Assembly (NCBI RefSeq): GCF_044704955.1
Contig: NC_091999.1
Coordinates: forward strand, 28,830,001-28,894,000
DNA length: 64,000 bases
Origin: Pristiophorus japonicus
Lineage: Eukaryota
Direction of reading: 5' to 3'
Under the pieces are notes generated by a model. That model had not been told where the DNA came from, did not search any database, and worked only from the letters and a program-made list of their open reading frames with translations. The stretch's first letter is position 1. Each line of letters starts with the position of its first letter. The position numbers were made by a program, and so were the translations under genes. Below, one piece after another: positions 12,970-54,000 of the stretch.

Positions 12970-14469
12970 GTACTGATACTCCAGCTGACTGCTGCGACTG
13001 ACATGGTGTCTGAGACTTTGCATATATTTCCTTTCCTGCAATATGTGAACAGTTACACACATTTACACAACGAAATAATTTAACTTAACACCAGTTCTGT
13101 TATTGGGTAGATGTGTATATAAATAGGTCTTTTGTCAATGTAAATGTTTTGAAGTTGGCTTCCAGGCATGCGGTCAGTAGTGAGAAAACTGGCCTTTGAT
13201 GGAGTGCACAGAACCCCAGATGCTTCCTGAAAATGACACTGGTGTTCGTGGCTCGCTGACGGCAGTCGGTTGGGTTACTGCCAAATATTGTGCGGGTCAG
13301 ATTAGCGTGAACAAGAATGAGAGAAATATGGTATTTAACTATTTAAATATTACATTATTCAGTCGAACTTTTAAAATAAGAAACATTTTCCATAGTATAA
13401 CATCTCAAGAATGATTTTACGTAAATTGCATGCTCACAATATTACAAAACAGGATCTGAAAATAATGAATTGATCCACACGGTACCTAATGAAAACTATT
13501 TCCAAATAAAGACCATTCTAAATCTTTCAATCGATTTATTCAGTACAGCATGAAGTGCTGGAGAGACGTTTAATGTCCTCACCCCACACTGTAATGAGAT
13601 GAGTGGGATTCGCAAAGTAACTAAAACAGGTTGAATTGCCTTGAATATTCTCACAGAGAAGTGCCAGCTGCACTTCTTTAATATTCTCACAGAATTTTGA
13701 GCCTGGTCTAAACACATGTCTCCATTATTCGTGATCAGTAGCCGCGCAGGGTGCGGTGTAACTTGAACTGATTTGGATCCCTGAACAAGCCCTCTCATAG
13801 CCCGGCTACCAGTGGGTGGTGAAAGGCCCAGATTGAAATCTCTGTTTCTGCTGGAGATGAAGCATTTATTCCTGTGATATTCTGTAAGATACCACTATGT
13901 CCTGATACACCGTGTTCCTGTTACCCGTGTCTGTTACACATTCGGTCGCTATTAAAGTTAGCGGCAAGGATTTGGATGTCAAGGTTTGCTGATCACATTA
14001 TCGATTCTGATTCACCAGCTTCTCTCATAAAACGCTGGTCTGAAGCGGGCGGCCCCCACTTTCTTATGTGTCTTCGTCAACTCACTCCTTAATCATCAGA
14101 CAAGCAGACTTATTTTACAGCTAAATTTACAAACGGCTGTCTTAGAGTCACAGACTCAGGGGCAGTTAGTGAAATGCAGTGAGAGACAATTGTATAATGT
14201 GAGGAGTATGATCTCATCTCCAGAACAAAAGTGTAGCTTCAGCCAAGTACACTGTAAATAGAATCACATTACCCATCTACCGCACTCGGTTACATAGAGT
14301 GATATCAATTCAGATTATAGGGGATACTTTATTGGTACAGTTGCATTGATAGATAGCGGGAGATGTAAAAGCACAAACTGGCCGTGTCATTAGATCCTGA
14401 TAATGTAATTCAATCTCAAAGATTTACATCCCCTGTGAAAGAGTGAGGAATAAAGGGATTTAATTTACA

Positions 14470-14590
14470 GTCCAGATGTGAGTCCATTCTGTTGGTGATG
14501 TGGAAGGAGTGACGTGGATCCAGAAACCGCTTCTATCAGGGAAGCAATGGGTGGCGCCTTTAACCTCGCCCCCATCTCCCAGGTATTTAG
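14470..14590 (+). promoter_or_regulatory. Putative IgH V promoter: E-box, CRE-like AGTGACGTGG, TATA-like TATTTA
   Basis: CAGATG 14473, AGTGACGTGG 14508-14517, TATTTA 14584-14589 about 100 bp upstream of the leader ATG; no ATGCAAAT octamer seen. Confidence 0.55.
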
Positions 14591-14682
14591 CTGCCGGCCA
14601 CTGGGAGCGCAATACAACAGTCTGGGAGTGGGTTTGCTCAGTGAGTTCTTGCTGGAACCAGTCACCACACATTGCCAGGAGG

Positions 14683-14728
14683 ATGAGGTCGGCGATTGCT
14701 TTCGTTCTGTTGCTGGCTTTACTTTCCC
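14683..14728 (+). pseudogene. IgH leader exon MRSAIAFVLLLALLS
   Basis: 46-nt hydrophobic exon, donor GTGAGT at 14729, acceptor TTACAG ending 14856. Confidence 0.95.
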
Positions 14729-14856
14729 GTGAGTAGTTTTTATTGTCCAATTATCTCATTGTTACTGTCTCAGTGCGAGTCTCTCTCTGAAATTTTACAG
14801 AGTCAGGAATCATTTCCCGAGGATTGATCCTCGGGATATTTTGATTATTTTTACAG

Positions 14857-15176
14857 GTGTCCAGTCGGATGTGGTGTTGACTCAGCCCGAGGCAAAGACC
14901 AGGATTTCCTGAGTCTCCCTGAGACTGACCTGTAAACCAGCGGGTTCGATTTTGGCGGCTATGGCATGAACTGGGTCCGCCAGGTTCCCGGTCAGGGGCT
15001 GGAGTGGCTGGTTTACTACTACACTCCATCGAGCAAGAATAACGTCCCAGGGATCGACAGCCGATTTACTGCATCCAAAGACACTTCAAACAACATCTTC
15101 ATGTTGGACATAAAGAACAAGAGGAGCGAAGACACCACCATCTATTACTGTGCAAGGAAGGACTACGGGAGTGGGT
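14857..15176 (+). pseudogene. IGHV: IgM VH exon fused in the germline to a D segment (VD)
   Basis: VQSDVVLTQPEA...SLRLTCK / [24 protein letters not shown]...[13 protein letters not shown]...[10 protein letters not shown] then KDYGSG. In-frame TGA in FR1 and a 1-nt deletion after the first Cys. No RSS between YYCAR and GGACTACGGGAGTGGGT. Confidence 0.93.
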
Positions 15177-15214
15177 CACGGTGCAATACAGAGTGAGCTC
15201 TCCATACAAATACC
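15177..15214 (+). other. Recombination signal sequence, 22-bp spacer
   Basis: CACGGTG (15177-15183), 22 nt, ACAAATACC (15206-15214). Confidence 0.92.
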
Positions 15215-15305
15215 CCAGACAGGGAGTTTGCTAAAACCTGCGACCATTACCACGCCAGGAGCGTCGAAGGAACTGAGGCTTAAATAAAAATAATTAGAAA
15301 TAAGT

Positions 15306-15332
15306 TATATATATATATATATATATATATAT
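15306..15332. repeat. (TA)n microsatellite between the two RSSs
   Basis: Visible directly. Confidence 0.95.
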
Positions 15333-15541
15333 TTAAATGTATAACAGTTTTCTTCTTTATTAATATTGATTGCCATGTTGAACATGCACAGATGCTTGAG
15401 AAGTATTCCAATCATTTTTGTAAATATAATGAACGCTACAAAATGAAATATCTCGCTGATTCACTCTTACGACAGTCAGAATCGGGTTTTTAGAGCTGGG
15501 TGGAATTTAATCTCTGTATTTTACAGTTAACAGTCCGCCTG

Positions 15542-15569
15542 AGTATTTGACACAACGTGTCTCACTGTG
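15542..15569 (-). other. Recombination signal sequence, 12-bp spacer
   Basis: AGTATTTGA (15542-15550), CACAACGTGTCT (12 nt), CACTGTG (15563-15569). The position 23 nt upstream of the heptamer (CAGTCCGCC) is not a nonamer. Confidence 0.85.
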
Positions 15570-15619
15570 TTACGCAATGGGCTACTGGGGACAAGGGACC
15601 ATGGTGACGGTGACTGCAG
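15570..15619 (+). pseudogene. IGHJ: JH segment, probably germline D-J fused (YAMGYWGQGTMVTVTA)
   Basis: WGQG motif and donor GTAAGG at 15620; preceded by a 12-RSS instead of the 22/23-RSS expected for JH. Confidence 0.9.
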
Positions 15620-15711
15620 GTAAGGAGCATTCACTGATTCAGTAACACTTTTATTTGTGTCTTTATTTTATATTTTTGTTTATTTTAATAATTATTTCGT
15701 TCACTGAAACT

Positions 15712-16885
15712 TGGGTTCGGTGGATTTTGTTTTGAGATTTTTTGCAATTATCAATGTGATTCTGCTGCAAAGTGATTATAGAATTCAACTGTTTCTCCAC
15801 AGAAAATGTTGTTGATGTGATTTGGTATTTATTTGCTGCCGAGACTGTGTGTCTAGGTTACTTTAAATACTTTATGATTATTACACTGTTTGACGTTTCT
15901 GCAATGTTTAATCTTGGTGACCTCTGATTGCTGCAGTTTTTCTGATCGAATGCAAACATTGTGTTTGAATGTGTTTAAAAGAACATTGTAGGCACAAAAC
16001 AGAAAGCTTAGCGATCAGTAAATAACCTAAAGGACTTTTAGTTTTTTCATGAAAATTACATTGTCATCTACTGACCGAATGTTCCCAAATGATCAGATTC
16101 AATACGTGAGCTGTAATTAAGAACTGAAAAATTAACATATTTCCAGCTGGAACACATTTAAATTAACATTATTATAACGTAGTAATATCACCAATTATTA
16201 TTGAAATACGCTATAATATCAAAATTAACGTATTTAACATAATCCGTCGAATCACAATTCTCTGTCAGTATTTTATATTTCTGTTGAATTCAATCATTAG
16301 ATATCTCAGTGTGAGGCGGGTTCGGTGATTGTGTAATGAGATTTTTTTGCAATGATACATTTGATTCTGCTGAAAGGGTTTATAGAATTACGGATCTGCT
16401 CCATGAAAGGTTCTGTCGATGGATTCCGCCCCTCAGCGATGTGATTTAGTATTGATCTGCTGAGGAGAGTTTGTGCCTGTGTTACTCAGAATACCTAGAA
16501 TTAGTGAAGCTGTTTGGCGTTTCTACAATGTTTAATATCGGTGACAGCGGGCAGCAGCAGGTTTCTGATCGAATCCAAACAAGATATGTATTTTGAAACT
16601 GTTTTTAAACAGTAGGTAGGCAAAGAACAGGACGGGTTTAGACATCAGAAGTCATTGAAAGGTATTTTAACATCACAATTATTGAAGTGATAATTATATA
16701 TTCAACTATTAATCTATTTTGACGATGCTGGTATATTAATATGTGAAATGTAACTAGTTGCCATCTACATAATTAACTTATTCAGGTTGTAGTTGAATTA
16801 AATTACTATTAACCAACCGATTATAATGCAATAATATCACCGAATGTTATTAAAATATGCTATTTGTCCAATGTTCATGTTCTGA
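15712..16885. repeat. Old tandem duplication of about 600 bp in the J-C intron
   Basis: GGGTTCGGTG..GAGATTTTTTGCAAT..GATTCTGCTG at 15713 and 16318; TCTGATCGAAT.CAAACA at 15941 and 16564; TAATATCACC at 16182 and 16832. Confidence 0.75.
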
Positions 16886-19274
16886 ATATTATTCGCCTTC
16901 AAAAATCCTGCTGTACACTGGGCACCATTAAGGGAAGCAGAAACTTTTAGAGGCTGGATACAGTTATTAATTATGCCTGCAATTATTTCATTAACAACAT
17001 ACTGATTCCACCGCTGTGTTCAGTTTGAGTCGGGAGTTCAATTACTTGCTACCTCCTCTTTACACAGATGAATGACTGAGTGCAATTAATTATAACTTAA
17101 AGCCGTGTTGCAAATTGCATTTTGTCAATTTAATCTATCTGCCGGGGTATGACATTCTCACTGTGTAGCCGAAATTTGTTATTGAATCAATATTGTGTGT
17201 TGTTTGATAGAATTATCACTAAGTTAACCTTGAACACTTTGCAAGAACAAAAGCTGAGAGACAGGCATCGCTGGCAGTCAAAGAATTGTTCAAGTAATTA
17301 TATTGAAATTCAAGGCAGATTCCGAATGCGTATGGCTGGAGACAGCAAGTAATCCATTGAAATTCAAGCAGATTAATTTACTTACAAAAGGTTCATCTTA
17401 CTTTGTATTTGAAACAAAATCCTATCTCCCAAAACGCTGCTGTATGCGGAATAGAAGGTAGACAAAGCACAAACCATATCTGAGAGCTATGTTTAATTTT
17501 TATTAATATTAAATTGATGAACAAAGTCTCTCCTCCATTTGCACATTCAGTTTCAGTGCCCCAGATGGTCTGAATGAATTGTTATCCTCTAGTTTTACAC
17601 TGACCATTCTGGAAACTATTTTCAAGAAGTAGCAGAATATATTTAATCATTAACTTACGGGCATTTTGTGAATAACTGGAGTCTTCAGCCAGGAACTCAT
17701 TGAATGGCGGTGCAGGCTCGAAGGGCCTAATGGCCTACTCCTGCAGCTATTTTCTATGTTTCTATGAACTTTAAAAGATTGTCTGTGTTATTAAGTAGTG
17801 GAGGCTCTGCTACTGACTGCAAACTGCAAGGATGGATTTTAATTAATAAAACCATTTTTGGGGTTTAAGATTGAGGAGAATATTTCAGCTCGAGATTCCA
17901 GCATTAGTAAACAAGCGGTTTACAGCCCATCGGAGTTGTGACCCTGGCTGGACAGAGAACTATTTAAATTAGTCCACACCCAAATCCATAATGTGAAATG
18001 CTCTCTGCAAATAGACGCAGTTTATGCTATATTAGAAACATGCAGAGTTTAAAAAGGTGTCGGTCGAGAACGGGACAATAGTAGAACTGCGTGATTATTG
18101 TCAATTATTCAAATTTGATTCCATTTAAGTAAAAATAAGGTATATTTCAGAGTAGTCATGTATTAATATGCAGCTTAATATTTTAATATTGATTAATTGT
18201 TGTGGTAAGTTAAGTAAACCATAATATATCACAAGTTATCAGGCAGAAAAGGTTTTAAAAAGTTTAATAATTACTTCTATTTGTATGGCTGAAATTCAAG
18301 CACGTTAATTTAATTTCAAAAGTTCCAGGTAGGTATGCTTCTGAGGAGGAAGGGCCAGAATGGCACTCAGATTATTTTCAATATTCAGCTAACATGAACA
18401 TTAAATTAGAATGTAACATCAGTGCTAATTCATTAAAACATAAGCGAGCACTTACAATTGTGTTGCATACTGGTCAGTATTACAATTATTGCAAAATTTC
18501 AAGCGTTGGAGATAATGTTTAATTCATTCATGAATTAATTTAGAAAACAATGCATTGATAACTCGGCTGTGCTGAGTTCGACAATGTGTCGCTGCAGATT
18601 TTAGTGAATTAATTTCCTGTTTTGCCGCGATGATTTTACAGGTTATATTTACTGATGAAAACATATAAAATCAGTGGATGATTAGGTATCGCTGTATATG
18701 TCTCCTGGATTGTGACATTCTTACTCTGTCACCGAGTCCCGTGTGACGGGCAGCAAATTCCCGTGGAATGTGAATTATTTCCAGCTACTTGCTTTCAGGG
18801 AAGTAAATTTTTACACGGTTTACAAGATAGTTGACAGAGATGGGGAAATGGCTGGATGTTGAAGAGTCTCTCAAATTAATATCAGATTAATTTCAAAGAA
18901 TCTGCAGCGTTGAGGTGGTTGGAAATTGACAAGAAATAAACTAGAAATCTAACATCTTCATTGAAATTAACAGATTGAACTGGTCTCTCTCTGCCTAGAG
19001 CACCCTTCTTGCACCGTTTGTGTCTGTTCTGTTTCTGTGCGCCTGCTCACTGTGTGAGCATCAGGAGTCCTCCTGACGGGTTGTAAACCTTCTGGGTTGT
19101 GATCCTGTATTGCGGGGAGTGTCATTTAATTCAGTTATTTAAGAAATTGGTATCTGTGAGAAACGTGAAAGATTGACTTTAAGGTTGAGGATTCGCCGTA
19201 GAAATGAGATCAGTAACCCAGATTGTGACAGTCAGAAGGAGCAGTTCCGAAACACCACGAGGAGACAGTCGAAG

Positions 19275-22172: not shown

Positions 22173-22472
22173 TAACACCGTCTCCCCCCACCCTCTGCGC
22201 CCTGCTCTCCTCCTGTGAACAACCCAGCACCGATGGCTCCATCACGTAGGGCTGTTTGGTGATGGACTACTCCCCTGACATCATCAGCCTTTTCTGGAAG
22301 GAAGATAAAGAGCCGATCACCACTGGATTGAAGACCTACCCGTCATTGCTCAAAAATAATTGAACCTGCACCCTGAGCAGCCAGTTAACCATCACCGAGT
22401 CGGAGGTGGGGAGCAGCACAATCTGCTGCGAGGTTCGACGTGATGTGTCGGTGTGGAACATCACAATGTCAG
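22173..22472 (+). pseudogene. IGHM: IgM CH1 exon with two premature stops
   Basis: [34 protein letters not shown]...[19 protein letters not shown]...[24 protein letters not shown]; AG at 22171-22172, GT at 22473; TAG 22247, TGA 22361. Confidence 0.95.
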
Positions 22473-22551
22473 GTTAATGATGTGGGATACAGGGCAATCT
22501 GTGATAAGGTGAGAAGTTATGTTGAACTTGTATAGAAACTTGGTTAGACAA

Positions 22552-22963: not shown

Positions 22964-23284
22964 AACGTCGTGAACGGATCATTGTTCCTCCAATTGTTCT
23001 CCTCTTGCCATGTTCCACTGAACAAATCATCAGCAGCAGATATGCAAGCGCCATGTGTTCAATCATCGAATTAAGGCCAAAGTCACTGACCATGAATTGG
23101 CTGAAGAGTGGACAACTCCTGGATTCGGGCTTCATCACCTCTCCCGCCTTTGAGATGAACGGAAACGTTTTGACGGCCAGTCGGCTGACACTCCCCGCCA
23201 GGGAATGGTTCACCGGCTCGGTCGACACCTGCCAGGTCACTCATGAAGGGGGCACACAAAGCCGTAACTTCAGCAGATCTCAGG
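22964..23284 (+). pseudogene. IGHM: IgM CH2 exon; frame open, splice acceptor apparently mutated
   Basis: IVPPIVLL...ASAMCSII...WLKSGQLLDSGFITSP...SRLTLPAREWF...TCQVTHEG..QSRNF; donor GTAAGA at 23285; no AG at the expected start, so the start is approximate. Confidence 0.9.
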
Positions 23285-23409
23285 GTAAGAGGCACAATCC
23301 AGGGAGGTTCCAGACCATTCTGAGCGCTGATCTCAGTCAGGACTTTAATTGAAATTAGTAGAAACAGAGGAATATTCCTAATTCCCAATCATGCAGTTTG
23401 TGTATTCTT

Positions 23410-25254: not shown

Positions 25255-25562
25255 TGGATGTCCCATGCAGCGATTAAAAATCACTCTTCGCCCACCGTCA
25301 CTGGAACAGGTTTTACTGGAGGCCACGGTGACCTTAACGTACGTCGTGTCTGACGTTCCTTACGGGCTCACCGTGACCTGGACCCGAAAAAACGAGACTT
25401 TGAAATCAGAGATTGCCGTCCATCCCGGAGAGGATCCCAACAGTGTGATCAGCAACTTAAACATCTCGACAGAAGACTGGCTGAGTGGGGATAGGTTCTA
25501 CTGCGTGGTGAGCCATCAGGATATGTCGACTCCTCTCAGAGATTCCATCCACAAGGAAAAGG
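25255..25562 (+). pseudogene. IGHM: IgM CH3 exon; 1-nt deletion near the start and first Cys changed to Tyr
   Basis: [20 protein letters not shown]...[47 protein letters not shown]. The spliced frame reaches TAA after VDVPCSD. Donor GTGAGC at 25563. Confidence 0.95.
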
Positions 25563-26480
25563 GTGAGCGGGGAAATTGTTGCAATAATTGAGACACTGCG
25601 ACAATTTCGATGCGTGTGCAAGGGCCAATTGATTATATAAAGTGTTTAATGGCTACTCTGATCATTCAGGTTGGTAAATCCACCAACTCAGCACTCTGGG
25701 ACCTGACATTATGTATTTTAGGGGAAACTGGATAAGTCCATGAGCGAGAAAAAAATAGAAGGGTATATTATTAGGTTTAGATGAAGTGGGCTCGTAGGAG
25801 GCTTGTGTGGATCATAAACACCGGCATAGACCAGTTAGCCAAATCTCATCGTTCTGTGCATTAAATTCTTTGTCATTTTCCAGTCCAATGCTTCAAGATT
25901 TCAGAGAGAAAGATTACATTCCCTCGGATAAGGGATGGAAAACCAGAGAGGCAACAGAGGGGAAAAGGAAAAGCGTAAAAAATTAAACGCAGTGTCCATT
26001 TCTCTCACATCTAACCACCGGAAATTGGCTGAATTTAAATGAGGAAGGCGAGTTGTGGGCGTTGATCTCACAGGCCACCAGTGAAAACGGGAGGATTGGA
26101 AGCCGAGTGAGGAGGTCGCGGATCGCGGGGGGTGGGTTAGGCAGGGACCCTGGATTCAGGAGGTAGGTGTAAGGGCAATTACCACCTGGGAGCAGCAATC
26201 TCCACCTTGCTGTAACTGCTGAGATTTACAAAGTGTGTCAAACCGGACCAGCGACTGTTAAACACCAAATGGTGGTTAAAATAGAGGATTCAAGTCTCAT
26301 TTAAATATATTACTGAAATATAATATTACAACCGGAAGTGAGCGAGTTGAGGTAGGGATTCTAATTTTTACCAATTTAACAACCACCACGCCCAAAATGC
26401 GCCCGCTGTATTGGGTTGAAATTCCCCCATTGTCTCTGGAACTAACCAGTTCATTGGCCTTTGTTGTAACTGTTCTACAG

Positions 26481-26844
26481 CGAAAGATCCGCGGGAAGCG
26501 GCCGTGTCTGTCCTCCTGCCCTCAGCAGAAGAAGTCTCTGCTCAGAGGTTGGTCAGCCTCACCTGCTTAGTGAGAGGTTTCCCCCCCGAGAGATCTTCAT
26601 CAAATGGACCGTCAATGACAAGCCCGTGGATTCCGGCAACTCCATGAACACCGAGTTGATGGCGGAGAACGGCAGCAGCTCCTTCTTCATGTACAGCCTG
26701 CTATCCATTGCAGCCGAGGAGTGGGCGAGCGGCGCCTCTCACTCCTGTGTGGTGGGACATGAAGCGATCCCATTGATAATCACCAACAGAACCGTCAATA
26801 AATCCAGTGGTAAAGCATTTCCCTTGTTCTGATGGACACCTTCA
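26481..26844 (+). pseudogene. IGHM: IgM CH4 exon plus 5' part of the secretory tail
   Basis: [33 protein letters not shown] / [12 protein letters not shown]...[38 protein letters not shown]; frameshift in the C7 run at 26581; tail frame ISLVLMDTF follows a short deletion; internal TM donor G/GTAAA at 26809-26810. Confidence 0.95.
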
Positions 26845-27539
26845 TAAGAACATAAGAACATAAGAATTAGTAACAGAAGTAGGGCATCTTGCATCTCGAG
26901 CCTGCTCCGCCATTCAACAAGATCATGGCTGATCTGGCCGTGGACTCAGCTCCACTTACCCGCCCGCTCCCCATAACCCTTAACTCCCTTATTGGTTAAA
27001 AATCTATCTTTCTGTGAATTGAATACATTCAATGAGCTATCCTCAATTCCTCCCCTTTGCAGTAAATTCCACAGATTCACAACTCTGTGGGAGAAGAAAT
27101 TCCTTCTCAACTGAGTTTTAAATTGGCTCCCCCGTATTTTGAGGCTGGGCCCCCTAGTTCTAGTCTCCCCGACCAGTGGAAACAACCTCTCTGCCTCTAT
27201 TTTGTCTATGCCTTTCATTGTTTTAAATGTTTCTATCGATCATCCCTCATCCTTCTGAATTTCAACGAGTAAAGACCCAGTCTACTCAGTCTATCATCAT
27301 AAGGTAACCCTCTCATCTCCTGAATCAGCCTCGTGAATCGTCTCTGTACCCCCTCCAAAGCTAGTATATCCTTCCTTAAGTAAGGTGACCAAAACTGCAC
27401 GCAGTACTCCAGGTGCGGCCTCACCAATACCCTATACAGTTGCAGAAGGACCTCCCTGCTATTGTACTCCATCTCTCTGGCAATGAAGGTCAACATTCCA
27501 TTCGCCTTCCTGATTACCTGTTGCACCTGCAAACTAACA

Positions 27540-27730
27540 TTAATTGCCGGTGCTTTTAGTGTCCCCCTCCCCTTTTATAGGGGGCACTTGGAAAAAAATA
27601 TGTTTCTGTGCCCAAAAAACCCCCCCAAAAAATACCACAAAAAAATAAAAGGGCCTGTAAATGTGTGGTATTTCCCCCAGATCGGGGGGAGGTTACGGTT
27701 TAATGTTTTTTGTTTACTCCCAAAAAGAGT
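27540..27730 (+). mobile_element. Tx1-clade element 3'-UTR fragment (upstream tandem copy)
   Basis: Homologous to 34714-34868 (TTAATTGCCGGTGCTTTTAGTGTCCCCCTCCCCTTTTATAGGGGGCACTTGG...AAAAGAGT) with indel differences. Confidence 0.93.
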
Positions 27731-27746
27731 TTCATGCACAAGGACC
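27731..27746. repeat. 16-bp target-site duplication TTCATGCACAAGGACC (left copy; right copy 34869-34884)
   Basis: Exact duplicate of CR1 sequence on both sides of the full-length Tx1. Confidence 0.95.
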
Positions 27747-28670
27747 AATGGTGGAGCTTTGGAGGCGTGGCCTATGCACTTGGAGCCTAGCTGCTGTGAG
27801 AGAAGAAACTCCCTGCTTTAGCTCCCGTCTGGAAGGCCTGGAGTGAGCCCTGAGACCAGCCCAGGAACTGGAGGAAGGAAGGGGCTTCATTACCATTCAT
27901 CTAGAGTGAGAGGAGGAGAGCAGAAGACTGCAACACCTTCATTATTTCAACAAAGATTTGGAGAGAGGGGGGAAAAAGAACAACAACTTGCCAATGTGGA
28001 AGGAGGGAAAGACTTCTTCAGCCAAAGGTGGGTGTGTTTTGGTGCATTCACCAAAAAGACTTTGTTGTATCGGTGGGGGGAGGAAAGATGACCAATCGAG
28101 GGCCAGAACATCGCGGGGGGTGTGTGTGTGTGTGGAAGTGTATGTGGGGGTCTTGACTACAGCTAGGCCCACACACCACTGAAGCACCCCTCCCCCATTG
28201 CCTAGCCTGGGATAGCTGGAGCTACCAGGCTGAAGAAACTAAATCACCCTAATTAACATCGTTGGGAGTGTGTACCTGTGTGGCTCCAGCTGCCCCAGGT
28301 GAAGACATCTTCTGCCCCACCCGAAGTCAACCCCAAAGACTGTTTTGTTTGCCATCTGGGGAGTGCACCCACCCATTACTGTGAGGGGAGATCTGCCCTT
28401 GCAGCCTCCCTCTTTCCCACAACCCCTCACTCTATCTCTCTCTCTGTCTCTCCCCTCTCTCTCTGAGAGCCCTTCCTCCCAATTGGAAAAAAAAAAGACA
28501 AGAACAATTTAGACAACTGAGCAGAGGGAGCAAGGCCCCTCCCCAAATGCCAACTAGGGGAGAGGAGTGCCTCTTTCAGAGCTCCCGCTGTTAAATATTT
28601 AAACGAGGCCACTTAAGACAATTAAGGCATGTGACTTTGGGGTGGGTGTAGCCCTGAAAGGGACCCCGTG

Positions 28671-30797
28671 ATGGCGACCCCATCCACGCCGGTGGCAGGG
28701 CCAGCTAGGACTTATGCGCAGGTGGCATCCACATCCACGGCACCTCCTGCGCCTCCTTCTGCCCTGCCACCATTCAGACTGATAACTAAAAAACACGGGG
28801 TCAAGGGCTACACTAAACCCGCAATGAGCATTGAGGAGTGCGTGCGGGCGATGGCTGGGGTAGTCGGCCCCTCGGCCATTGTCGAAGTCTCCAAGATGTC
28901 TGGGAAGGCCGTGTTCTTCCTGGGGTCAGAGCGGGCGATGTCCCTGGCCATTGAAAAGGGGCTCATGGTGGGCGGGGTGTTCCTGCCGGAGGACCCTCTC
29001 GAGGCCACCGCGCAGAGGGTCATCATTTCAAACGTCCCGCCCTTTGATCCCGCTGAGCTCCTCCTCCCTCATCTACACCAAATGGGGGAGGTAAGGTCGG
29101 GGATCAACCCTATACCGCTCGGCCTCAGGGAGAACAGCCTGCGCCATGTGTTCTCCTTCCGCCGCCAGCTCTTTGTCCGGCTGGCGCGGGAGGAGACGAC
29201 GGAGGGCAATTTCAATGTGGTGCACGATTGGACTGCCTACCACGTCTTCTGGACGTCGAACGGCTTGCGGTGCCATGCCTGCAGTGATGTGGGGCACGTT
29301 CGCAAGAACTGCCCCGCCTCCAAAGCCGCCAAACCACCGAGGGTGGCCAAGGCTTGCGCCGCCGCCACCCCTCCCCCTAGTAGCGTCCACGTGCCGGGAG
29401 CCGTAGGTGCGCGGGCATCGTCGGAGGCCATTGTTTTCACGGCCTCCGGCGGGGGGGGAGGGACAGCGTCCGACCGGAAAGAAGGCACGGAAGAAGGCGA
29501 AACATCTAGAGGCGGGACCCCACAGTGCGCCAGACAATCTGTTTACCGCGCTCGGGCCAACCCCGTCACCGGCGAGCGCGGGATGCCCTGAGCCCGTGCC
29601 TGAGCCCTTGACCAGTATCACAGAGGCGCTCGGGCGCGGGCAAGAAAAGAAAAAGGGGGTGGGTGGAGCGGGAGGCCTCGGCAGACATGGAGGTCTCCCT
29701 GCCTCCACGCCCTCCCAGGAACAAAAGGAGGCGCCGCTCCAATGAGGCGGAGGGGGAACAACATCCCTCCGCGGAGGAGTCGGTGCCCGCCGCGTGTCCC
29801 GCGTCCCCCACCAGCGCCCCCAAATTGCGCTGCAGGCGTGAGGAATCTGTCCCCGGGGAGGGTGAGGCAGTCGAGGCTGCCCGGCCTCTGCCTCCCGGGG
29901 ATGGTGTGAATGATCTGCCTGACGAGGGGGGCGACGGGCCAGCGGTGGAATGCGTAGCCGCCGGGTCGAGCGTCCCCGGGACTGAGGCAGGCGGGGCCGA
30001 ACAGTCCGAACCTGAGCCCGCCCAGGTATTAATTATCTGCCCCCTAGAGTCGCTCGGCCCGGAAGAAACTGAAAATGGATTAATTTTAACGATTCTGTAC
30101 ACGCTGGGCCGGGGGGTGGCGGCGGGGAGGGGGAAGAACAACAACCTTCGCCACCTACTTTGGAGCTGGGGTACTTGGAGGACCTGGAACATTACTTTGA
30201 CCAGGTCTCTCCGTGTTCCGCGGTTCCTGGGGCGGAGGAGGAAACCCTTCCGCTGTTGGTTCCCGACCCAGTACCAATTTTAAAAGAGCTCAGTGGGGAC
30301 TCCTCTGCCGACGATCCTGGGGTGGGATTGGGGCAGAGCCAGGGCCAGATGGAGCGGCCGGGCCGTTTGCCATACCTCGTGCGGTCGACGAGCCGGCTGC
30401 TAGCGGCGACCTCCCGGAGGAGGACGGGGACTCGGTGGAGGACGCGGGTGAAGATCTCGAGTCCATCGCCAGTGAGGCGGTAGATCTCCTCGTGACCGCC
30501 GCTGAATCCCCCCTCATTCCCGTCGAGGAACTCCGGGACTTTTTGGTCCAGCGCCAGGGTCGCCGCAACCGAACCCATCTGGCCCGGGAAAGATGGTCTG
30601 AGCCGGGGCTGCTCATCGCTTCCGTCCGCGCCGCCGCTAAAACCATGGCCGTGGGCGGGCCCTTATCAAAGGCGCAAGGCCTTGAGCTGCGCCGGCTCAA
30701 AAGTTTCCTCACTGGGCTGCTGAAGGAGTGGAGGTCAACAAACGACTCCACTCCCACCCCCCACAATAGGTTAGGTAGAGGTTGCACTATGCTCTAG
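28671..30797 (+). pseudogene. Tx1 ORF1 (nucleic-acid binding, zinc knuckle), frameshifted
   Basis: TYAQVA, KHGVK, SKMSGKAVFFL, RVIISNVPPF, HVFSFRRQLF, CHACSDVGHVRKNCP, then a long low-complexity tail split over several frames; end approximate. Confidence 0.85.
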
Positions 30798-30799
30798 TC

Positions 30800-33700
30800 A
30801 TGAAGATAACCATAGCCAGCCTCAACATCAACGGCAGCAGAGAGGCACGACGTAGATTTAACAATTTTTCGCTCCTGCAGGAGGGGAAATATGCAGCGTG
30901 CTTCCTGCAAGAAACCCACACCGTTCCGGGAGACGAAGCCACGTGGATCCTGGAATGGCAAGGAGAGGTCCGCATGAGCCACCTCACTGCCACTTCTAGT
31001 GGGGTGGCCATCTTGCTGGCCCCGCATTTTCAGCCGGAGATCTTGGGGGTCGAGGAGCCCGTGCCAGGCCGCTTGCTGCACGGAACGGTTCGCCTGGGGG
31101 CGTGCCGCTCCACCTCGTGAACGTGTACGACCCTCAGCCCGGCCCGCAGCAAACGCGCTTCTTCGAAGAGGTGTCCGCTCTTCTTGGCTCCGTCGACGTC
31201 GGCGACTGCATTGTCCTCGGGGGGGATTTTAACTGCACCCTCGAGGCCAGGGACCCCTCCGGTGCCCCGCAGAGCATGACGGCGATGGAGAAGTTGTGGG
31301 ACCTGGTCGGGTCCTTCGACTTGGTGGACGTCTGGCGAAATCTCCACCCAGACTCCAGCGCCTTTACTTGGGTGAGGCCTGGAGTTGGATGGTCCACAGT
31401 CGACCGCCTTTACCTGTCTTGGGCGTACGTTTCCTGCGTCCCGGCAGCCTCCATGCGGCAGGTACCCTGTTTGGACCACCACCTGCTGCGGGCAGAGCTG
31501 GCTTCGCTCCGCGCGAGGACGGGGTCCGCGTACTGGCATTTTAACAACCAGCTGCTGGAGGACGTGCGGTTCCAGGACTCGTTCCGTCGTTTCTGGGCCG
31601 ACTGGAGAAGGAAGCAGGGGGGCGTCCCCTCCTTGAGGCTATGGTGGGACGTGGGCAAGGCTCACGTCCGCGTCTTCTATCAAGAGTACGCGAGGGGGTC
31701 GACCAAGAGGCGGGCGGCCAGGGTCGGGCATCTAGAAAAGGAGGTGCTCGACCTGGAGCAAGTCGTCGGGGACCCGGCCCTGCGGACGGTGTACGAAGCG
31801 AAGAAGGACACGCTGAAGGACCTGCAGCTCGTAGGGTCCCGAGACGTGTTCGTGAGGTCACAGATCCAGTTCCTGCGGGATCTGGACCGCGGCTCCGCCT
31901 TTCTTCTACTCGCTGGAAAAAAGACAGAGTGTCCGTAAGCAGCTCTTGACGCTGCTGGCCGACGACGGCTCTCTCGTCTCGGATCCGGAGGACGTCAACA
32001 ACAGGGCCATTGAATATTACGGGGCCCTGTTCTCTCTGGAGCCGTCCAGCGAAGAAGTGCATAGAGTTTTGTGGGAGGACCTGCCGAAGGTCAGCCCGGA
32101 GGGCGCCGAAAATCTGGAAGCTCCGCTAATCCTGGCGGAGCTGACCGGCGCCCTCGACCGGCTCTCGAGGGGAATATCCCCGGGTCTGGACGGGCTGACC
32201 GTGGAGTTCCACAGGGCGTTCTGGGAAGTCCTGGGGGGCGACTACGCGCGGGTCCTGTGGGAAAGTCTGGTGACCGGGGAGATGCCCCTCTGTTGGCGCA
32301 GGGCAGTCATTGTCCTGCTCCATAAGAAGGGCGATCTCCGCCTCCTTAATATCTGGCGCCCAGTATCCCTCCTCAGCACGGACTACATAATCATCGCCAG
32401 GGCGATGTCTGTTCGCCTTGGTGCCGTGCTGGACCACATGATCCAACCCGACCAGTCCTACACGGTCCCGGGCCGGACAATCCACGATAACATCCATCTG
32501 GTCCGGGACCTCATCCATTATTCCCCAGGAGGCTGGTCTGCCGGTCGCCTTCCTATCCCTCGACCAAGAGAAGGCGTTCGACAGGGTGAATGACGACTAT
32601 CTGCTTGGAACTCTGCGCGCTTTCGGGTTTGGGATGCATTTCGTCGCCTGGATCCGACTTTTATACGCCGCCGCAGAGTGTCTGATTAATGTTAACGGGT
32701 CCTTGACGGCGCCCCTTCGCTTTGGGAGAGGGGTGCGCCAGGGATGCCCCATGTCCGGCCATTTATATGCCGTCTGCGTGCAGACTTTCCTGCGCCTCCT
32801 GCGGACGAGGTTGACGGGACTGGCTCTGCAAGGGCCGGGCGTGGAGGTCGTCCTCTCGGCTTACGCCGATGACGTGCTCCTCACGGTAGAGGATCCCGCT
32901 GACCTGCGGAGGATGTGTGAGTGCCAGGAGATTTACTCAGCCGCATCCTCCGCCAGAATCAACTGGGAGAAATGTTCCGGACTCCTGGTGGGTCAGTGGC
33001 GGGTGGACTCCCTGCCGGAGGAGCTCACGCCTTTTGCCTGGAGCACGACCCATCTCCTCAATCTGGGAGTCTACCTTAGCCCCGACGAGGAAGTGTGGGT
33101 GGCGAACTGGCAAGAGCTGGGGGCCAAGGTCGCCGCTCGCCTAGGGCGCTGGACAGGACTGCTCCGAGTGCTGTCCTGCAGGGGTCGAGCGCTAGTCATA
33201 AACCAGCTTGTGGCCGCCATGTTGTGGTACCGGCTGGTCACTTTGACCCCTCCACCTGAGTTTGTCGCCAAGATACAGAAGAAGCTGGTGGACTTCTTCT
33301 GGAACAACAGGAAGCACTGGGTCTCTGCCACGGTCTTGAGTCTCCCGCTTGGGGAGGGCGGTCAGTTGTTGGTGTGCGTCAGCGCCCAGCTCGCGACTTT
33401 CCATCTTCAGACCCTGCAGAGATACCTTTACGTTGACCCCCCTCCCAGGTGGTGTGCTCTGGCGATGTCTTTCTTCCGCCAGCAGCATGGCCGCAACTAC
33501 GACACGCAGCTCCTGTTTGTGAGTGTGGGGGTCGTCAGGACCGCCCTCCGGGAGCTGCCTGTCTTTTACAAGGAACTCATCAGGGTCTGGAACAAAGTCT
33601 CCACCAAGCGGAGCTCTCCACCGGCTGGAGTGGCGGCCGTCCTGCAGGAGCCGCTGCTCGGGAATCCGTACCTCCACGACCGAGGTTTTAGGTGGCGATC

Positions 33701-34688
33701 GGATGAGCGTGCTTTGGCTGGTGAGGTGACCAGGGTCAGGGACCTGCTCGATGGCGGAGGAGCGGGTTGGATGGTGCCAGACACGCTGGCGCGGCGCCTA
33801 AATTCCGCCAACGTCCGCCGCGCGGCTGATGCCATCGAGTCGATAAAAACAGCTCTGGGCCCCGACACCATTAGGTGCATCGAGGAGGCTCAAGCACGCG
33901 GGGAGATCCCATCCGAACTGACCCCCGTCCGGACGGAATTCCTCATCGGCGCCAAACCCCGGAACCTCCCTCGGGGGCCGACGCCTCACAACTTGAGCCG
34001 CCTCGTGGAAATCCCCTCCGTGCCTTTCAGTTCTGCGCGGAGGGGTTTCCTGTACGGGCTGCTGCTGCACACTCTCAACTTTGCCATCCTTGCCTGCCGT
34101 CTGGACACGCCATGGCGTACCATCTTGCCGTCCAGAGGAGGCGGGGGTCCCCGATGGAGGGCACTCTACGCAGGGGTCCTCCCACTATTTGCCGGGGACT
34201 TGGCCTGGAGGGTGATGCACGGAGCAGTGCCGTGCAATAAATTTTTAAGCCGGTTCACGGGCTCCCAGGCCGCCTGCAATTTCTGCGGTCTGGAAGAGTC
34301 CGTGTTCCATGTTTTTATTGAGTGCACGAGGTTGCTGCCCCTGTTTTGTTATTTAAAGGAGCTGCTCCTGAAATTCTGGCTGCACTTCAGTCCCACACTC
34401 CTGATCTTCGGGCACCCTGTGCGGAGGGGAGCGGGTAGGTCCGAAGGCCTCCTCGTAGGACTGCTCCTGGGCACGGCCAAGGGGGCCCTCAGCCGGTCCA
34501 GGCAGCAGGCGATCGAGGGGGTCGTTCAGCCAGACTGCCTGCCTCTCTTCCGCGCATACATCCGGTCAAGGGTGTCCCTGGAGATGGAGCATGCGGTGTC
34601 CACCGGTACGCTCGTGGCCTTCTGCAAGAGATGGGCACCGGAGGGACTGGAGTGCATCATCACGCCCGGCAACCAAATTTTAACTTGA
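30800..34688 (+). pseudogene. Tx1 ORF2 (AP endonuclease, reverse transcriptase, C-terminal zinc finger) with three 1-nt frameshifts
   Basis: MKITIASLNING, FLQETH, LGGDFN, DHH, YWHFN, SPGLDGL, WRPVSLL, LDQEKAFDRV, GVRQGCPMS, AYADD, CNFCGLEESVFHVFIEC; shifts near 31100, 31900 and 32525. Confidence 0.93.
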
Positions 34689-36092
34689 TTTCATATTTTT
34701 AAGTTAATTTGTTTTAATTGCCGGTGCTTTTAGTGTCCCCCTCCCCTTTTATAGGGGGCACTTGGAGAAAAAATATATTTTTGTGCCAAAAATAAACCTT
34801 GTAAATGTTGGTGTTTCCCCCAGATCGGGGGGCACGGGTTAATGTTTTTTGTTTGCTCCTAAAAGAGTTTCATGCACAAGGACCCCCAGGTCCCTCTGCA
34901 TCGCAGCATGTTATAATTTCTCCCCATTCAAACAATGTTCCCTTTTGCTGTTTTTTTTTCCCTCAAGATGCATGACCTCACACTTTCCGACATTGTATTC
35001 CATCTGCCAAATCTTAGCCCATTCTCTAACCAATCTAAATTTCTTTGCAGCCTCTCTGTGTCCTCTGCACAACCCGTTTTCCCACTAATCTTTGTGTCAT
35101 CTGCAAATTTTGTTACACTATACTCTGTCCCCTCTTCCAGGTCATCTATATATATTGTAAACAGTTGTAGTCCCAGCCCCGATCCCTGTGGCACACCACT
35201 AACCACCGATTTCCAACCCAAAAAGGACCCATTTATCGCGATTCTCTGCTTTCTGTTTGCCAGCCAATTCTCTATCCATGCTAATACTTTTCCTCTGACT
35301 CCACGTGCCTTTATCTTCTGCAGTAACCTTTTGTGTGGCACCTAATCGAATGCCTTTTGAAAATCTGAATACAGCACCTCCATCGGTACACCTGTATCCA
35401 CCATGCTCGTTATATCCTCAAAGAATTCCAGTAAATTAGTTAAACATGATTTCCCCTTCATGAATCCATGCTGCGTCTGCTTGATTGCACTATTCCAATC
35501 TAGATATCCCGCTCTTTCTTCCTTAATGATAGTTTCAAGCATTTTCCCCACTACAGATGTTAAACTAACCGGCCTTTAGTTACCTGCCTTTTGCCTGCCC
35601 TCTTTTTTAAACAGAGGTGTTACATTAGCTGCTTTCCAATCCGCTGGTACCTCCCCAGAGTCCAGAGAGTTTTGGTGGATTTTAACGAATGCATCTGCTA
35701 TAACTTCTGCCATCTCTTTATCCCTGCGATGCATTTCATCAGGACCGGGGGACTTTTCTACCTTGAGTCCCATTAGCCTGTCCAGCACTACCCCCCTAGT
35801 GATAGTGATTGTCTCAAGGTCCTCCCTTCCCACATTCCTTTGACCAGCAATTTCTGGCATGGTTTTTGTGTCTTCCACTGTGAAGACCGAAGCAAAATAA
35901 TTGTTTAAGCTCTCAGCAATTTCTACATTTCCCATTATTAAATCCCCTTTCTCATCTTCTAAGGGACCAACATTTACTTTAGTCACTCTTTTCCGTTTTA
36001 CATATCGGTAAAAGCTTTTACTATCCGTTTTCATGTTTTGCGCAAGTTTACCTTTGTAATCTATCTTTCCTTCCTTTATTGCTTTCTTAGTC

Positions 36093-42239: not shown

Positions 42240-44740
42240 GCGACCCGAAGTGAGATGGTGTTGTCGAAGTACAGGGGTAATGCTACCTGCTCAGTTTTGG
42301 TGCTGTCAGAATACAGAAGACAACATAAAGAAGGCATACAGAAGGCAGCGATACATTAAGGGAGATAGGGGTACTGATAGCTCTTCAGCGTAATCGGATA
42401 ATTTTGGGAGATAAGCACGAAACCGAATTAAGTTCGAAAACCCGGGACACCAGCAGCAACGAGTGGTAGGAACAACCATAATCCAACCCGAGTGGGAAAC
42501 AAAGCGTGTATGGGCTAGCGTGTGCCAATTATACCCGACTCTGTGGGCACAATGCAAACAAGATTATGGATTAGCAGAGATATCACCCATCAAAATTCCT
42601 GGACCCGAACACAAAGCTCACCGACAGTTCCAATTAACACCAGAAGCTGAGGAAGCGGGCTGTTAGATAGTGCATGAATTAGAGGAGCAAAGTATATTGA
42701 AACATGTAATAGCCTCCATTAATTCACCTGTGTGGCTGATGAGGAAACCCGACAGGTCTTACCGATTGACTATCGATTACACCACCTTGAATAAGGTGAC
42801 TTCCGGAGAACACCCAATATTGGCAAGTCCAGCCACAATTTTTAATGGCCTGGATCCAGATCATAAGATATTCACCATGCTGGATATAGTGAATGGAACT
42901 TGGACTATTCCCTTAGCCAAAGAGTCTCAAGGAAAATTTGTCTTCAAGGTAAATGGATAACAAAACACATGGGCGAAGGTACCACTGGGATTCAATAACA
43001 GCTGGAGCATCTTTCATCGAATATTGTCAGGAGAAAGAAGGAGCGAAGTAACATATCTGGGATACATAATATCGTAAGGGAAGAGACAGATGCCCGAGGA
43101 CAGTAAGGAACAATTCAATCAATCCCCAGATCAGGAACCGTGAAAGGGGTCAGGCAGGTACTCGGGCTATTCAACTACTGCAGAAATGTTATTCCCGAAT
43201 ATGCCAAGATGACCTAACCTATTCAGAAACAGGTCAAAGGATGGGAACCCTCCTAAGAGCCAGTAAACTGGGGTCCAGATCAAGAAACTGCATGTGTGCG
43301 GTTAAAACAAACTCTCACAAGTGCTCCAGCCCTGGGACTACCAGACCAGAATAGGCCCTTTCACGTCTATACCTACCATATTAACCATCATTATAACGCG
43401 GTGGTGATTCAATTACATGGAGACAGGCATAGACCAGTGGCATATTACTCAGATAAACCGCAACCTATAGCTGCAGGACTGTCCAGGTGCGTTGCTGCCC
43501 ACGACTGTGCGGCTTGGGCCATCAGATTTAACGAACCAATAATAATGTCAGGGTGCATTATTCTACAAACCCAGCGTACCTCAGTAGAATTACTTAAAAC
43601 TGGAAGGCTAAAAATGTATTCGATGCACAAATGGCGAGGTGGTAAATAATGTTCTCCCCTCTCCTCTCCCGCCACCCCCCACCCCCCGCCCCGCCCCACT
43701 CAACGGGACGGTAACAATAATAAAAGACGCCTGCAGGGTGGATCATTACAAAGGGAGAGGAGCATCATTGTAGCACAACAGAAGATGAGGGAAGTAGTCA
43801 GGCAAGTGAAACCCTGCTTGAGGAGGCAGACATGGATCGAAATGTAGAAGAGTTTCGGCGCTATATCAATGGGACACCACAGACTGGATGGGTCGTGGTA
43901 GATAGCAGCGGTCAGGTCAAAGGGGAAGGACGGTTAGTAGAGAATCTATCAGCTCAAGTGGTTGAACTAGTGGTTCTCACTGAGGCTCTGAGGCTTGCGA
44001 GGGGAAAATGAGTAAATATCTATACAGACAGTCGATATGCTTTCGGAGTAGAGCATGATTATATGATAGCCTGGAGCAGACGGTGATACACGACCTCAGG
44101 AGGAGGACCGATTAAACATGAAGAGATTGGGAAACATCTAGTGGAAGCCTCCTTCCTACCCCAGGAGTGTGCGATAATAAAGATCAAAGCACACGTAAAA
44201 AATAATGATCAGTATGAACAGGGGAATGCATGGACAGATGAAGCAGCCAAGCGAGTGGCAGGTACACTGGCCGGGGAAGCCCAAGGCGGAGCATGTACAA
44301 TTGGGCCTGAGGAAGTAAATATGCTTGAGGTACAGGGAGAGGCCACTCCGCAGGAACAGGAGGAGTGGAAGCAGAGAGGGCCAAACAAGGGACCGACGGG
44401 ATATGGAGAAAAGATGGGAATGTGGTGGCCCCGGAATGCATCCACGGGAGCCTATTAAATTTATACCACGGGTATGTGCATACAGGTAGAACCAACATGA
44501 TAAACTTGATGTCCAGATGCTGGTGATGGATTTAGAGAACGACACTAAGAAACAGAAGTTCCAAACACCCCAAATAGGCAGTCAAGAGATTACCCCAGAG
44601 AGGTTCGGGATCGCATCCAAATGGATCGGCCTCTATCACGTAATCATGGTAAGTTATGGTACTTATAAGGAGTATCGGCAAGTGGAAACACTGGATCCAG
44701 TTAAAAAAGCATGGTCACTAACTAACCAGTGACGACTGGA
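42240..44740 (+). pseudogene. pol: ERV pro-pol remnant
   Basis: ATCSVL (protease), NSPVWLMRKPDRSYRLTIDY, LDIVNG, LTSAPALGLPD, RPVAYYS, NIYTDSRYAFG, KIKAH..GNAWTDEAAK, YHGYVHTG, KWIGLYHVI. Confidence 0.9.
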
Positions 44741-51038: not shown

Positions 51039-54000
51039 ATGTTCTGGGAGATTCCAACTGAGCTTAGGATCCTGTTGGCACTTTTAAATGTGGAACGTAT
51101 TTATTACCCGCTCCTCGCTGCAGTTGGTGTTCCTGGTGAGTCCTTCATCTACAATTAATTATGTAACCCATGTTTCCCTGTATTTTCTGTCCTTGTCCTT
51201 TAGTTCTAGTTATTAATTGTATTCAATTTAAACCTCTTGTTCTGTGTCTGGCAATGCAAAGAAGTTTCTGTCATGTAATGTTTGATCATTTGTTAATTTG
51301 CTGCTCCCAGTTCAATGAACAGTATGTTGTTTTCACAATTTAAACCTATTTTCTGTGTCTGGCAATGCACGGAAGTTTCTGTCATGTAATGTTTGATGAT
51401 TTGCTGATTCGCTGATCCCAGTTCAATGAACAGTATGTTGTTTTCACAATTTAAACCTCTTGTTCTGTGTCAGGCAATGCACGGAAGTTTCTGTCATGTA
51501 ATGTTTGATCATTTGCTGACTCACTGCTCCCAGTTCAATAAACAGTGTGTTGTTTCCGCAAATTGTTTCCAGTGATAGTGGTTTACAGGATTTGACAGAA
51601 ATTTGATTTTATTGACACAAGATATGTTAGTGAACGATTAGATTATTGAACAGCTTGCAGTCAGCTTTCTGCACTGATGCCCAGTGTTGGATAATAAATA
51701 TGTGTTCAGCGGTAATACGTGTTTTAAGGACCGCTGGTTATTGTTAATGACACTGCTCTGTGGAAATCAGCGTTGAGAGATCCTTCACAAATACACTGAG
51801 ATATGAGACATTATCCACTAATGATTCAGCTATAGACAGTTGTCGTAATTTCCACCGCCTCCCGCTCTGCCTCATAGTCACTAATTCCAGATGATCAGGA
51901 CCGGGTTAAAACTGCAATGCGTCTTCCAGTAAAATGTTTATTCAGTTGTGCTTGAATTGATTTATTTCCCTTGTTCAGCCACAGTTCAGGAGATCTCGGT
52001 GTGGGCCGCACGGTAGCAACTATTCAAAATGTAGCACTATATTGTGAAATATTTTGATATTTCCAGTCTCAAACTCTCTCTGTCAACTGGAAGTCTGTAA
52101 CTTTCTCACACCAGGTGAAAGGCAGCAGGTTGACACAGTTCCAGCTGTAAACAGACACGTTCGAAAATCCTCTGTGACATCATACAACATGGGTCATCAT
52201 TAGTCTATTGTAAAGCGACAGTCCCTTCTTTAAAGATTATTTGCAATATTCCTGGAAAGTCAGCTTAAGCCAGTTACAAAGTGTACTTTCAATACAATGG
52301 TTGGAAAGGTTCTGATTTCGATACATAATGCAATTCAAGTCATCTTCTTCAGCCTTCGACACAACCGCCATAATCTCGCCAAAGACTCCATTCCCCTCTC
52401 TGGCAACAAATTTCATTCCCCACCTTGGCCACAGACTCCATTCCCCTCCCTGTACAGACTCCATTCCTTTTCTTGGCCACAGACTCCATTCCTCCCTTGG
52501 CCCACAACTCCATTCTCCTCCCTGGACACAGATTCCATTCCCCTCGCTGTCCCCAGACTACATTCCCATCCCTGGACAATGACTCTATTCCCCTCAATGG
52601 ACACAGGTTATTGACAAACTCGCGGCTTCTTGTGCTGAATTATTGCTCACTCTGACTTGGATATGGCGTTATATATTAGTCTCATTCAGCGCTTTAACAT
52701 CCCGGCAAAAGTCCAACACATTAACTCTTTCAGTCATGACCCAGCAACCACACATCACATCCACCGCTTCACTCACTCCCTGTCACAACACCCAAACATC
52801 CCATCCACTGGTACATTCAGTCCAGAGCCAACGCCCACACGTTCCATCCATTGGTACATTCAGTCCTTGCCCCGACACCCACACGTCCCATATATTGGTT
52901 CTTTCAATACCTGTGCCAAACACCACACGACCCATCCGCTGGTGTAATCAGTCCTGACCCAAACACCTCACGTCCCATCCGCTGGTGTAATCAGTTCTGA
53001 CCCAAACACCACACGTCCCATCCGCTGGTGTAATCAGTCCTGACCCAAACACCACACGTCCCATTGTATAGTTCATTTAATCCTGACACATTTCACACAT
53101 AATTCTTTGAGACAGCTGATGTTGCTCTCAATCTGAAATATAAATTCCCTGTTTTTCTCTTTCTTGCAGTGAACTTAGTGACGATAATGATCCTGTCTCG
53201 AGGAAGGTGCGGTCTCTCCAAGTGTGTCAGCCGTTACCTGGTGGCAATGGCAGCGGCAGATCTACTGGTCGTTATCCTCGACCTGATATCCAGGCAGATT
53301 CCTATTCTTTATTCAACCGCGTTTGATTTCAAGTGGAAGAGCAAAGTGTGTAATATCCATGCCATCCTGCTTTACGCAGTCACTGACTGTTCCGTCTGGT
53401 TCACAGTTGCTTTTACCTTTGATCGATGTATAGCCATTTGTTGTCAGAAGCTCAAAACCAAATATTGCACCGAGAAAACGGCGACTGTGGCTATGGGAAC
53501 ACTGAGTGCGCTATTCTGTGTAAAGAACACTTTCTGGTACTTTATGTATGGAGGTATGTATCAGATTTCCAATGGTAGCTGGTTTTGTTTTGTTACATGG
53601 GAAGTCTCTGAGTCACTATCATGGGCAGTAATTGAATTCCTTCATTATATTATCACACCGTTTATTCCATTTGTTCTGATCCTTCTGCTCAATACTTTAA
53701 CTGTCAGACAGGTTTTAGTATCGAGCAGAGCCCGCAGGAGACTCAGGGCCCACAGCAGTGGGGAGATTCCCAGTGACCCAGAGATGGAGAAGCGAAGGAA
53801 ATCCATCATTTTACTGTTTGTTATATCCGGCAATTTTATCCTGCTATGGGCAGTGTTTCTCTTATATTCTGTGGTTGAACGATTGTATTTGTTAAACTTT
53901 ATTCCTGTATATCTACCTCAATATGAACAGGAAATTGGATTTATGCTTCAGCTCCTGAGTTGCTGCACCAACACATGTATTTATGCCGTGACCCAGTCGA

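Follow-up and report, generated by a model that had tools for sequence, protein, structure and literature searches.

A dead IgM cluster with an inherited V-D1 join, in a shark VH family that has lost D2

Introduction

In the 64-kb stretch of DNA analysed here (hereafter the window; C23:28830001-28894000 of the 5.92-Gb genome of Pristiophorus japonicus), an immunoglobulin V segment runs directly into a D segment, and a J segment carries a 12-spacer RSS at its 5' border. The original prediction read this as two joins, V to D1 and D2 to J, each made by RAG in the germline, leaving a heavy chain with one light-chain-like junction. The locus therefore raises the question of whether these joins are inherited, whether each is what it appears to be, and whether the cluster can make a heavy chain.

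Harding 1990 and Kokubu 1988 are reportedly the primary papers on partial germline joining of IgM clusters in horn shark and little skate. In the excerpts of the literature used here and throughout, the germline clusters listed for horn shark and skate include V DD-J, VDJ and V D1-D2J types (PMC2193153), VD-J, VD-DJ and VDJ are listed as germline-joined types (PMC5192425), VD-DJ is given as a somatic intermediate (PMC2435157), and RAG activity in shark germ cells is argued for (PMC2193156). The VD1-D2J configuration has been known for decades, and the only new angle here is the loss of D2 across a whole VH family, with graded germline joins around it. A literature search, with most subscription papers outside its reach, returned nothing on family-wide single-D shark IgM.

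Results

Layout of the window cluster

The window contains an elasmobranch IgM minicluster, in which leader, VH, D and JH lie close together ahead of four Cmu exons and a secretory tail. Its assignment to IgM, already made in the original prediction, is borne out by PDB searches with the last exon and tail of a relative, whose best full-length matches (query 4-127) are mu chains; over the domain alone, an IgG hybrid outscores the mu chains. The elements from leader to J are as follows.

14683..14728, + strand: leader exon (MRSAIAFVLLLALLS), GT donor intact
14857..15157, + strand: VH exon, pseudogene, V-set match at E 6.5e-12
15143-15157, + strand: YYCAR, V 3' end, no RSS between it and D1
15158..15159, + strand: V-D1 germline junction, two bases, AA in the window and GA in the sister copy L026
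15160..15176, + strand: D1, full length (17 nt), 14/17 bases the same as the free D1 of unjoined clusters
15177..15214, + strand: D1 3' RSS, 22 spacer
15215..15541, + strand: former D1-D2 interval, 327 bp, homologous to the interval of canonical two-D clusters
15542..15569, - strand: 12-spacer RSS, now on J, orthologous to the D2 5' RSS
15570..15571, + strand: two extra bases, TT, separating J from the heptamer, either N addition or D2 remnant
15572..15619, + strand: full-length JH that keeps its first base, with 14 nt ahead of WGQG as in 12/12 canonical J segments, donor intact

This agrees with the predicted order, in which YYCAR enters D1 with no RSS, a 22-spacer RSS follows (15143-15214) and a 12-spacer RSS precedes J some 330 bp further on. 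A facing pair of 22/23- and 12-spacer RSS, 200-500 bp apart, arose in none of 500 shuffles of positions 14001-17000. Both the V 23-RSS and the D1 5' RSS are gone, V being fused to D1. The two junction bases may be N addition or the end of V itself, and a TdT origin is uncertain given the GA of L026. The window VH is 86.8% identical to the intact VH of an unjoined cluster (L077); its D1 3' RSS has an A-to-T change in the nonamer that intact relatives do not share, and the interval contains a TA microsatellite.

Lesions of the window cluster

Both fixed joins had been predicted to lie in open frames. The V exon is in fact broken, and the CARKDYGSG of the V-D1 join is out of frame with the leader because of an in-frame stop and a 1-nt deletion upstream; YAMGYWGQG is merely the frame of J itself. 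Further lesions affect the constant region.

14910..14912, + strand: in-frame TGA in FR1, common to 25 of 26 copies of the window's join (family A, below)
14934..14936, + strand: A run short by one base, frameshift past the first Cys
22175..22477, + strand: Cmu1, two in-frame stops
22981..23289, + strand: Cmu2, frame open, acceptor AC where intact relatives have AG
25260..25567, + strand: Cmu3, 1-nt deletion at 25276
26488..26844, + strand: Cmu4 and secretory tail, deletions of 1 nt at 26582 and 13 nt at 26814
26845..36092, no strand assigned: 9.2-kb insertion in the last tail codons, with a reverse-transcriptase ORF at 32442-34685

The window cluster is a dead IgM heavy-chain gene: since V and Cmu are both broken it makes no heavy chain, and the anticipated product with a single light-chain-like junction does not arise from this copy. 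Contigs of a DNA-like run, X1, cover the stop and the deletion gapless and unchanged, as well as both junctions; this run is likely the genome's own sample, and so not independent. The two RSS of the copy may still be cuttable by RAG.

No TM exon was found downstream in the rest of the 64-kb window. Within the insertion, a GC-rich retroelement with a reverse-transcriptase ORF occupies 28635-34685, and beyond it lie an RT/RNase H fragment (43257-43646) and a 321-codon open frame (53103-54065) with a 7tm_1 match (rhodopsin-family GPCR) at E 3.3e-18. The Cmu3 deletion at 25276 is also present in L091 (C23:34.63 Mb), a cluster of another clade, which suggests exchange between clusters.

Inheritance of the V-D1 join

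In a genome DNA search, in which 40 of 89 candidates were scored and copy counts are thus lower bounds, the identical V-D1 join was found at at least 26 dispersed loci, with divergence of up to 9.8% (family A). Mutations common among these copies follow a tree-like pattern. According to the excerpted part of PMC2435157, nurse shark lymphocytes normally pass through VD-DJ as a somatic intermediate, and the window might on that ground be read as a somatic rearrangement from a B or T cell, or else as an assembly artefact; three near-identical copies at 140-kb spacing, perhaps over-assembled, would fit the latter. However, one junction at 26 loci up to 9.8% apart cannot stem from one cell, and this explanation is refuted, with a negligible residual probability. 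The V-D1 join is inherited and germline. That part of the original claim stands on the 26 diverged paralogues, and the agency of RAG in making the join I infer.

The three copies in question (L004, L003 and L002, at C23:26636131, 26776387 and 26916646) are spaced by 140,256 and 140,259 bp, and might represent recent tandem duplication or over-assembly.

V is broken in 26/26 family-A copies, and 25 of them have the TGA and a net loss of one or two bases. The remaining copy, L026, is sister to all the others, has neither the TGA nor the deletion, and carries lesions of its own. The join therefore came first, the death of the gene next, and the dead gene was then amplified.

A dead gene amplified to 25 copies has expanded widely, and one could imagine that these copies persist because they serve as gene-conversion donors or RAG decoys, like the chicken VD pseudogenes; the chicken precedent for donors is discussed in the excerpted part of PMC2193156, and the traces of exchange between clusters would agree with such a role. 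However, the RSS of family A decay freely (J heptamer dead in 10/26 copies, D1 heptamer in 2/26), and intact families have been amplified on the same contig as well, so that neutral segmental duplication is explanation enough. I consider retention as donors or decoys highly improbable.

Absence of D2 from the VH family of the window

Searches with patterns for J, for V ends and for Cmu4 gave a catalogue of 80 IgM clusters, which is a lower bound: at seven of the 11 orphan Cmu4 sites the 10 kb examined contained no V, and some unplaced contigs are perhaps duplicates. The VH type of the window is found in 65 of the 80, and a second VH type in 15.

Window-type VH, 65 clusters: VD-J, 26 (family A); VD-J with another junction, 9 (family B); unjoined, 9; V-DJ, 7, 9 and 1; VDJ, 4
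Second VH type, 15 clusters: canonical V23-12D1 22-12D2 12-23J, 12; D1-D2 fused, 2; D-J fused, 1

The second VH family, about 36-40% distant from that of the window, includes the canonical two-D clusters (L127-L141 and L154, on C27 and unplaced contigs) and has germline D1-D2 and D-J fusions of its own (L126, L131 and L132). Its FR1 presumably resembles that of IgW. Four Cmu exons and a tail are present in both VH types, as judged from one canonical cluster on the second-family side. The nine unjoined clusters of the window's family have open V frames and the layout V23-12D22-12J, and of two such one-D clusters checked for Cmu, one is intact and the other has a Cmu3 frameshift.

Two further groups of V segments were encountered. 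A third VH-like family, with an AIELRQS start (L099, L137, L138, L142 and L143), possesses a 23-RSS and no J within the 1.5-3.3 kb examined, and some of the contigs that carry it have 12/12 D segments; it is possibly IgW. By eye, L101-L106 (C23:10.1-11.6 Mb) look like V segments of the TCR alpha/delta type and share their contig with the IgM array, a placement that fits the linkage reported in the excerpted part of PMC12227049.

A 12-RSS precedes J in 44/44 window-type clusters that retain the D-J interval, including the nine with unjoined V. In the 40 bases 5' of the window J heptamer, 29-32 match the D2 5' flank of each of the 12 canonical clusters, and only 9-11 match the J flank of each. 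Homology between the window and the canonical D1-D2 interval (79% over 146 bp) stops at the D2 5' heptamer and picks up again with the first base of J, and the canonical D2-J interval, which matches 14/15 second-family loci, has no match at any of the 65 window-type loci or in the window. A free 12/12 D pattern gave 20 matches, none of them on contig C23, and all 14 that were inspected lie in second-family clusters; a free 12/22 D pattern gave 24, and the 21 inspected comprise nine on C23, exactly the unjoined clusters, and 12 in the second family. A strict 23-RSS J pattern gave three unrelated matches and is uninformative, as the nonamer of the real 23-RSS J departs from the consensus.

The 12-RSS on J throughout the family, together with the break in homology at the D2 heptamer, implies that D2 is gone from the whole window-type family, the layout of which is a TCR-beta-like V23-12D22-12J. 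Alignment with unrearranged clusters, the check proposed with the original prediction, thus confirmed the 22-RSS as the D1 3' flank and the 12-RSS as the D2 5' flank, but the D2-J join placed in this one cluster proved to be a D2-less J common to the whole VH family, clusters with unjoined V included. Two other candidates were rejected: a D-less V-J cluster, since the RSS pair corresponds to the D1 3' and D2 5' flanks and not to V 3' and J 5', and 'TTACGCAATGGGC' as D2, which is J coding sequence plus two bases (J follows from its first base, after 0 or 2 extra).

Between the heptamer and J there are no bases in 12 of the 44 clusters and two in 32, and the part of J before WGQG, 14 bases in canonical clusters, measures 14 and 16 bases respectively. 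What may be retained of D2 in the window's family is 0-2 bases, or at most 4 counting overlap; the family's own D2 sequence no longer exists, and the comparison rests on the VH family about 36-40% distant. There, D2 (13 bases) starts with GTAC and J with AC, and the 16-nt ends of the window's family are TT or TA, then AC, where an ordinary coding join could have left a D2 remnant of 2-4 nt.

The possibility that ordinary coding joins in the germline made both V-D1 and D2-J, in a cluster that makes a one-rearrangement heavy chain, is consistent with the identity of the 12-RSS as the D2 5' flank, with the GT/AC overlap that permits such a remnant, with the VD1-D2J clusters known in horn shark and skate, and with an intact VD-J layout in the sister family B, where V is open in nine copies. 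Against this, V is broken in the window copy and in all 26 family-A members, the D2-less J is family-wide, and the 12 clusters in which J abuts the heptamer would need trimming to have removed the entire 13-base D2 without touching J. I regard this explanation as improbable, and for function it is refuted: the window copy gives no one-rearrangement heavy chain.

Pre-joined clusters elsewhere in the genome

Family B (VD-J; L027-L030 and L036-L040) has an open V in 9/9 clusters, which are no more than 1.5% apart, and Cmu1-4 are intact in the one tested; from its sequence, it is a real candidate for a one-step heavy chain. In the V-DJ families V is open in 7/7 and 8/9 clusters, and one cluster was tested in each: a stop interrupts Cmu1 in that of the first family, and that of the second is intact. 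Four clusters (L071, L146, L151 and L152) are fully joined VDJ; in L071, Cmu1-4 are gapless and the junction is in frame, which would make it a possible non-rearranging IgM.

Spliced contigs were found in three runs whose type is not on record. In run X6, one contig with a spliced leader has a V that agrees with family B at 14/14 sites over 2316-2462, another matches the unrearranged 12-RSS-J of family B, and one contig carries a V end fused to the V-DJ_1 segment, with bases added at the junction and the frame off by one. The last looks chimeric, with a family-B V up to 2462 and a different V after 2505, and, being also out of frame, it shows only that the junction and a spliced leader-V exist. 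Rearranged contigs of the second family, in which J is spliced to Cmu1, occur in runs X5 and X7. The X5-X7 contigs are single contigs from one study, and are hints; they meet the V of family A only in short conserved pieces and are uninformative on its expression. Of the paralogues and rearranged cDNAs that the original prediction suggested seeking, VD-J paralogues with an open V exist (family B, 9/9), and the V-to-DJ junction in X6 is out of frame.

Discussion

The best explanation of the window, to which I assign a probability of about 0.82, is that of a dead IgM cluster with a V-D1 join carried in inherited DNA and a J that had received the 12-RSS of D2 in an earlier, family-wide loss of D2, likely through a RAG hybrid joint in germ cells. 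When a hybrid joint forms between a D2 12-RSS and a J 23-RSS that face the same way, D2 and the RSS of J are deleted, and the 12-RSS is left flush on J, with a few bases lost or added. In the proposed order of events, an ancestral V23-12D1 22-12D2 12-23J cluster would have lost D2, the D2-J interval and the J 23-RSS in this way, RAG pairing the D2 5' 12-RSS with the J 23-RSS. The product, V23-12D22-12J, persists in the nine unjoined clusters with open V. V was then joined to D1 in one such cluster, in the germline as demonstrated above and presumably by RAG; the tree shows that L026 next split off, after which the stop and frameshift arose and the broken cluster was copied to 25 places.

The J of the window is compatible with a hybrid joint, with the heptamer flush, J untrimmed and 0-2 added bases, but a fully trimmed coding join or a heptamer deletion looks alike. 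Nine V-DJ clusters have D1 joined directly to a full J, which is what a working 12-RSS on J would produce. A germline precedent for hybrid joints, which exchange 12 and 23 RSS, is described in horn shark in the excerpted part of PMC2193153. On its own, the hybrid joint as the cause of D2 loss falls somewhat short of an even chance; a coding joint with near-total trimming is a tentative but serious possibility.

Loss of D2 without RAG, through deletion between repeated heptamers, has in its favor that in canonical clusters D2 and J are preceded by identical 7-base heptamers in the same orientation, and that the 12 clusters with no extra bases are its exact product. The 32 clusters with two extra bases, present in both deep clades, are left unexplained by it, and many other joins in the genome sit at RSS borders. 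As an account of the locus I hold such a deletion to be very improbable, and unlikely when considered solely as the route by which D2 was lost.

Two observations complicate the history. The 0-base and 2-base J ends do not sort on the tree of the interval, 2-base ends occurring in both deep clades, which points to several events or to gene conversion and blurs the record. In addition, eight bases at the V-DJ_1 junction match the start of one of three canonical D2 variants. This could mean that D2 was once still present inside the family, and counts against a single early loss, although P plus N bases also account for it.

Compared with the V D1-D2J//C clusters of horn shark and little skate, as excerpted, the window is alike in that V and D1 are joined, the D1-D2 interval is kept with its facing 22 and 12 RSS, J is fused to the D2 side, and the cluster sits among joined and unjoined ones. 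It differs in that D2 is essentially absent rather than joined, a comparison made by description and not by junction sequence, in that the D2-less J is fixed across the VH family, and in that the window copy is dead. The horn shark D1/D2 case (PMC2193153, in the excerpted part) is likewise a germline swap of RSS type with a proposed RAG hybrid joint, but there the D1-D2 interval is inverted, whereas in the window's family the event would have deleted D2, given J a 12-RSS and spread to a large family. The joined NS4 light-chain and IgM1gj genes of nurse shark, in the excerpts of PMC2193156 and PMC4279169, similarly occur among split relatives, stem from several independent events and include pseudogenes; unlike the partly joined and broken window cluster, they are fully joined and expressed in pups.

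TCR beta and delta loci have the RSS layout V23-12D23-12J, in which direct V-to-J joining is permitted by the 12/23 rule. The unjoined window-type clusters share this spacer order. They are nonetheless IgM genes that have four Cmu exons and end in a secretory tail, and their layout was derived by D2 loss, with no sign of TCR ancestry.

It is conceivable, though I advance it tentatively, that one germline RAG hybrid joint created this TCR-beta-like V23-12D22-12J arrangement and founded the larger IgM VH family (65/80 catalogued clusters), which was later rejoined in germ cells on at least six further occasions. The working members of this family would be one- or two-step genes with a short CDR3 and optional D skipping, beside the two-D family. 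The genome holds canonical two-D, one-D, VD-J, V-DJ, V-DD-J and VDJ IgM clusters that are similar enough for events to be ordered, which for heavy chains is described as hard in the excerpted part of PMC2193156. If the loss of D2 was a hybrid joint, RSS swapping would have reshaped a whole antibody family, an idea that otherwise rests on one case (PMC2193153, as excerpted). With one-, two- and three-step IgM genes in one animal, it may be tested whether genes with fewer rearrangements prevail in heavy-chain exclusion or in early life.
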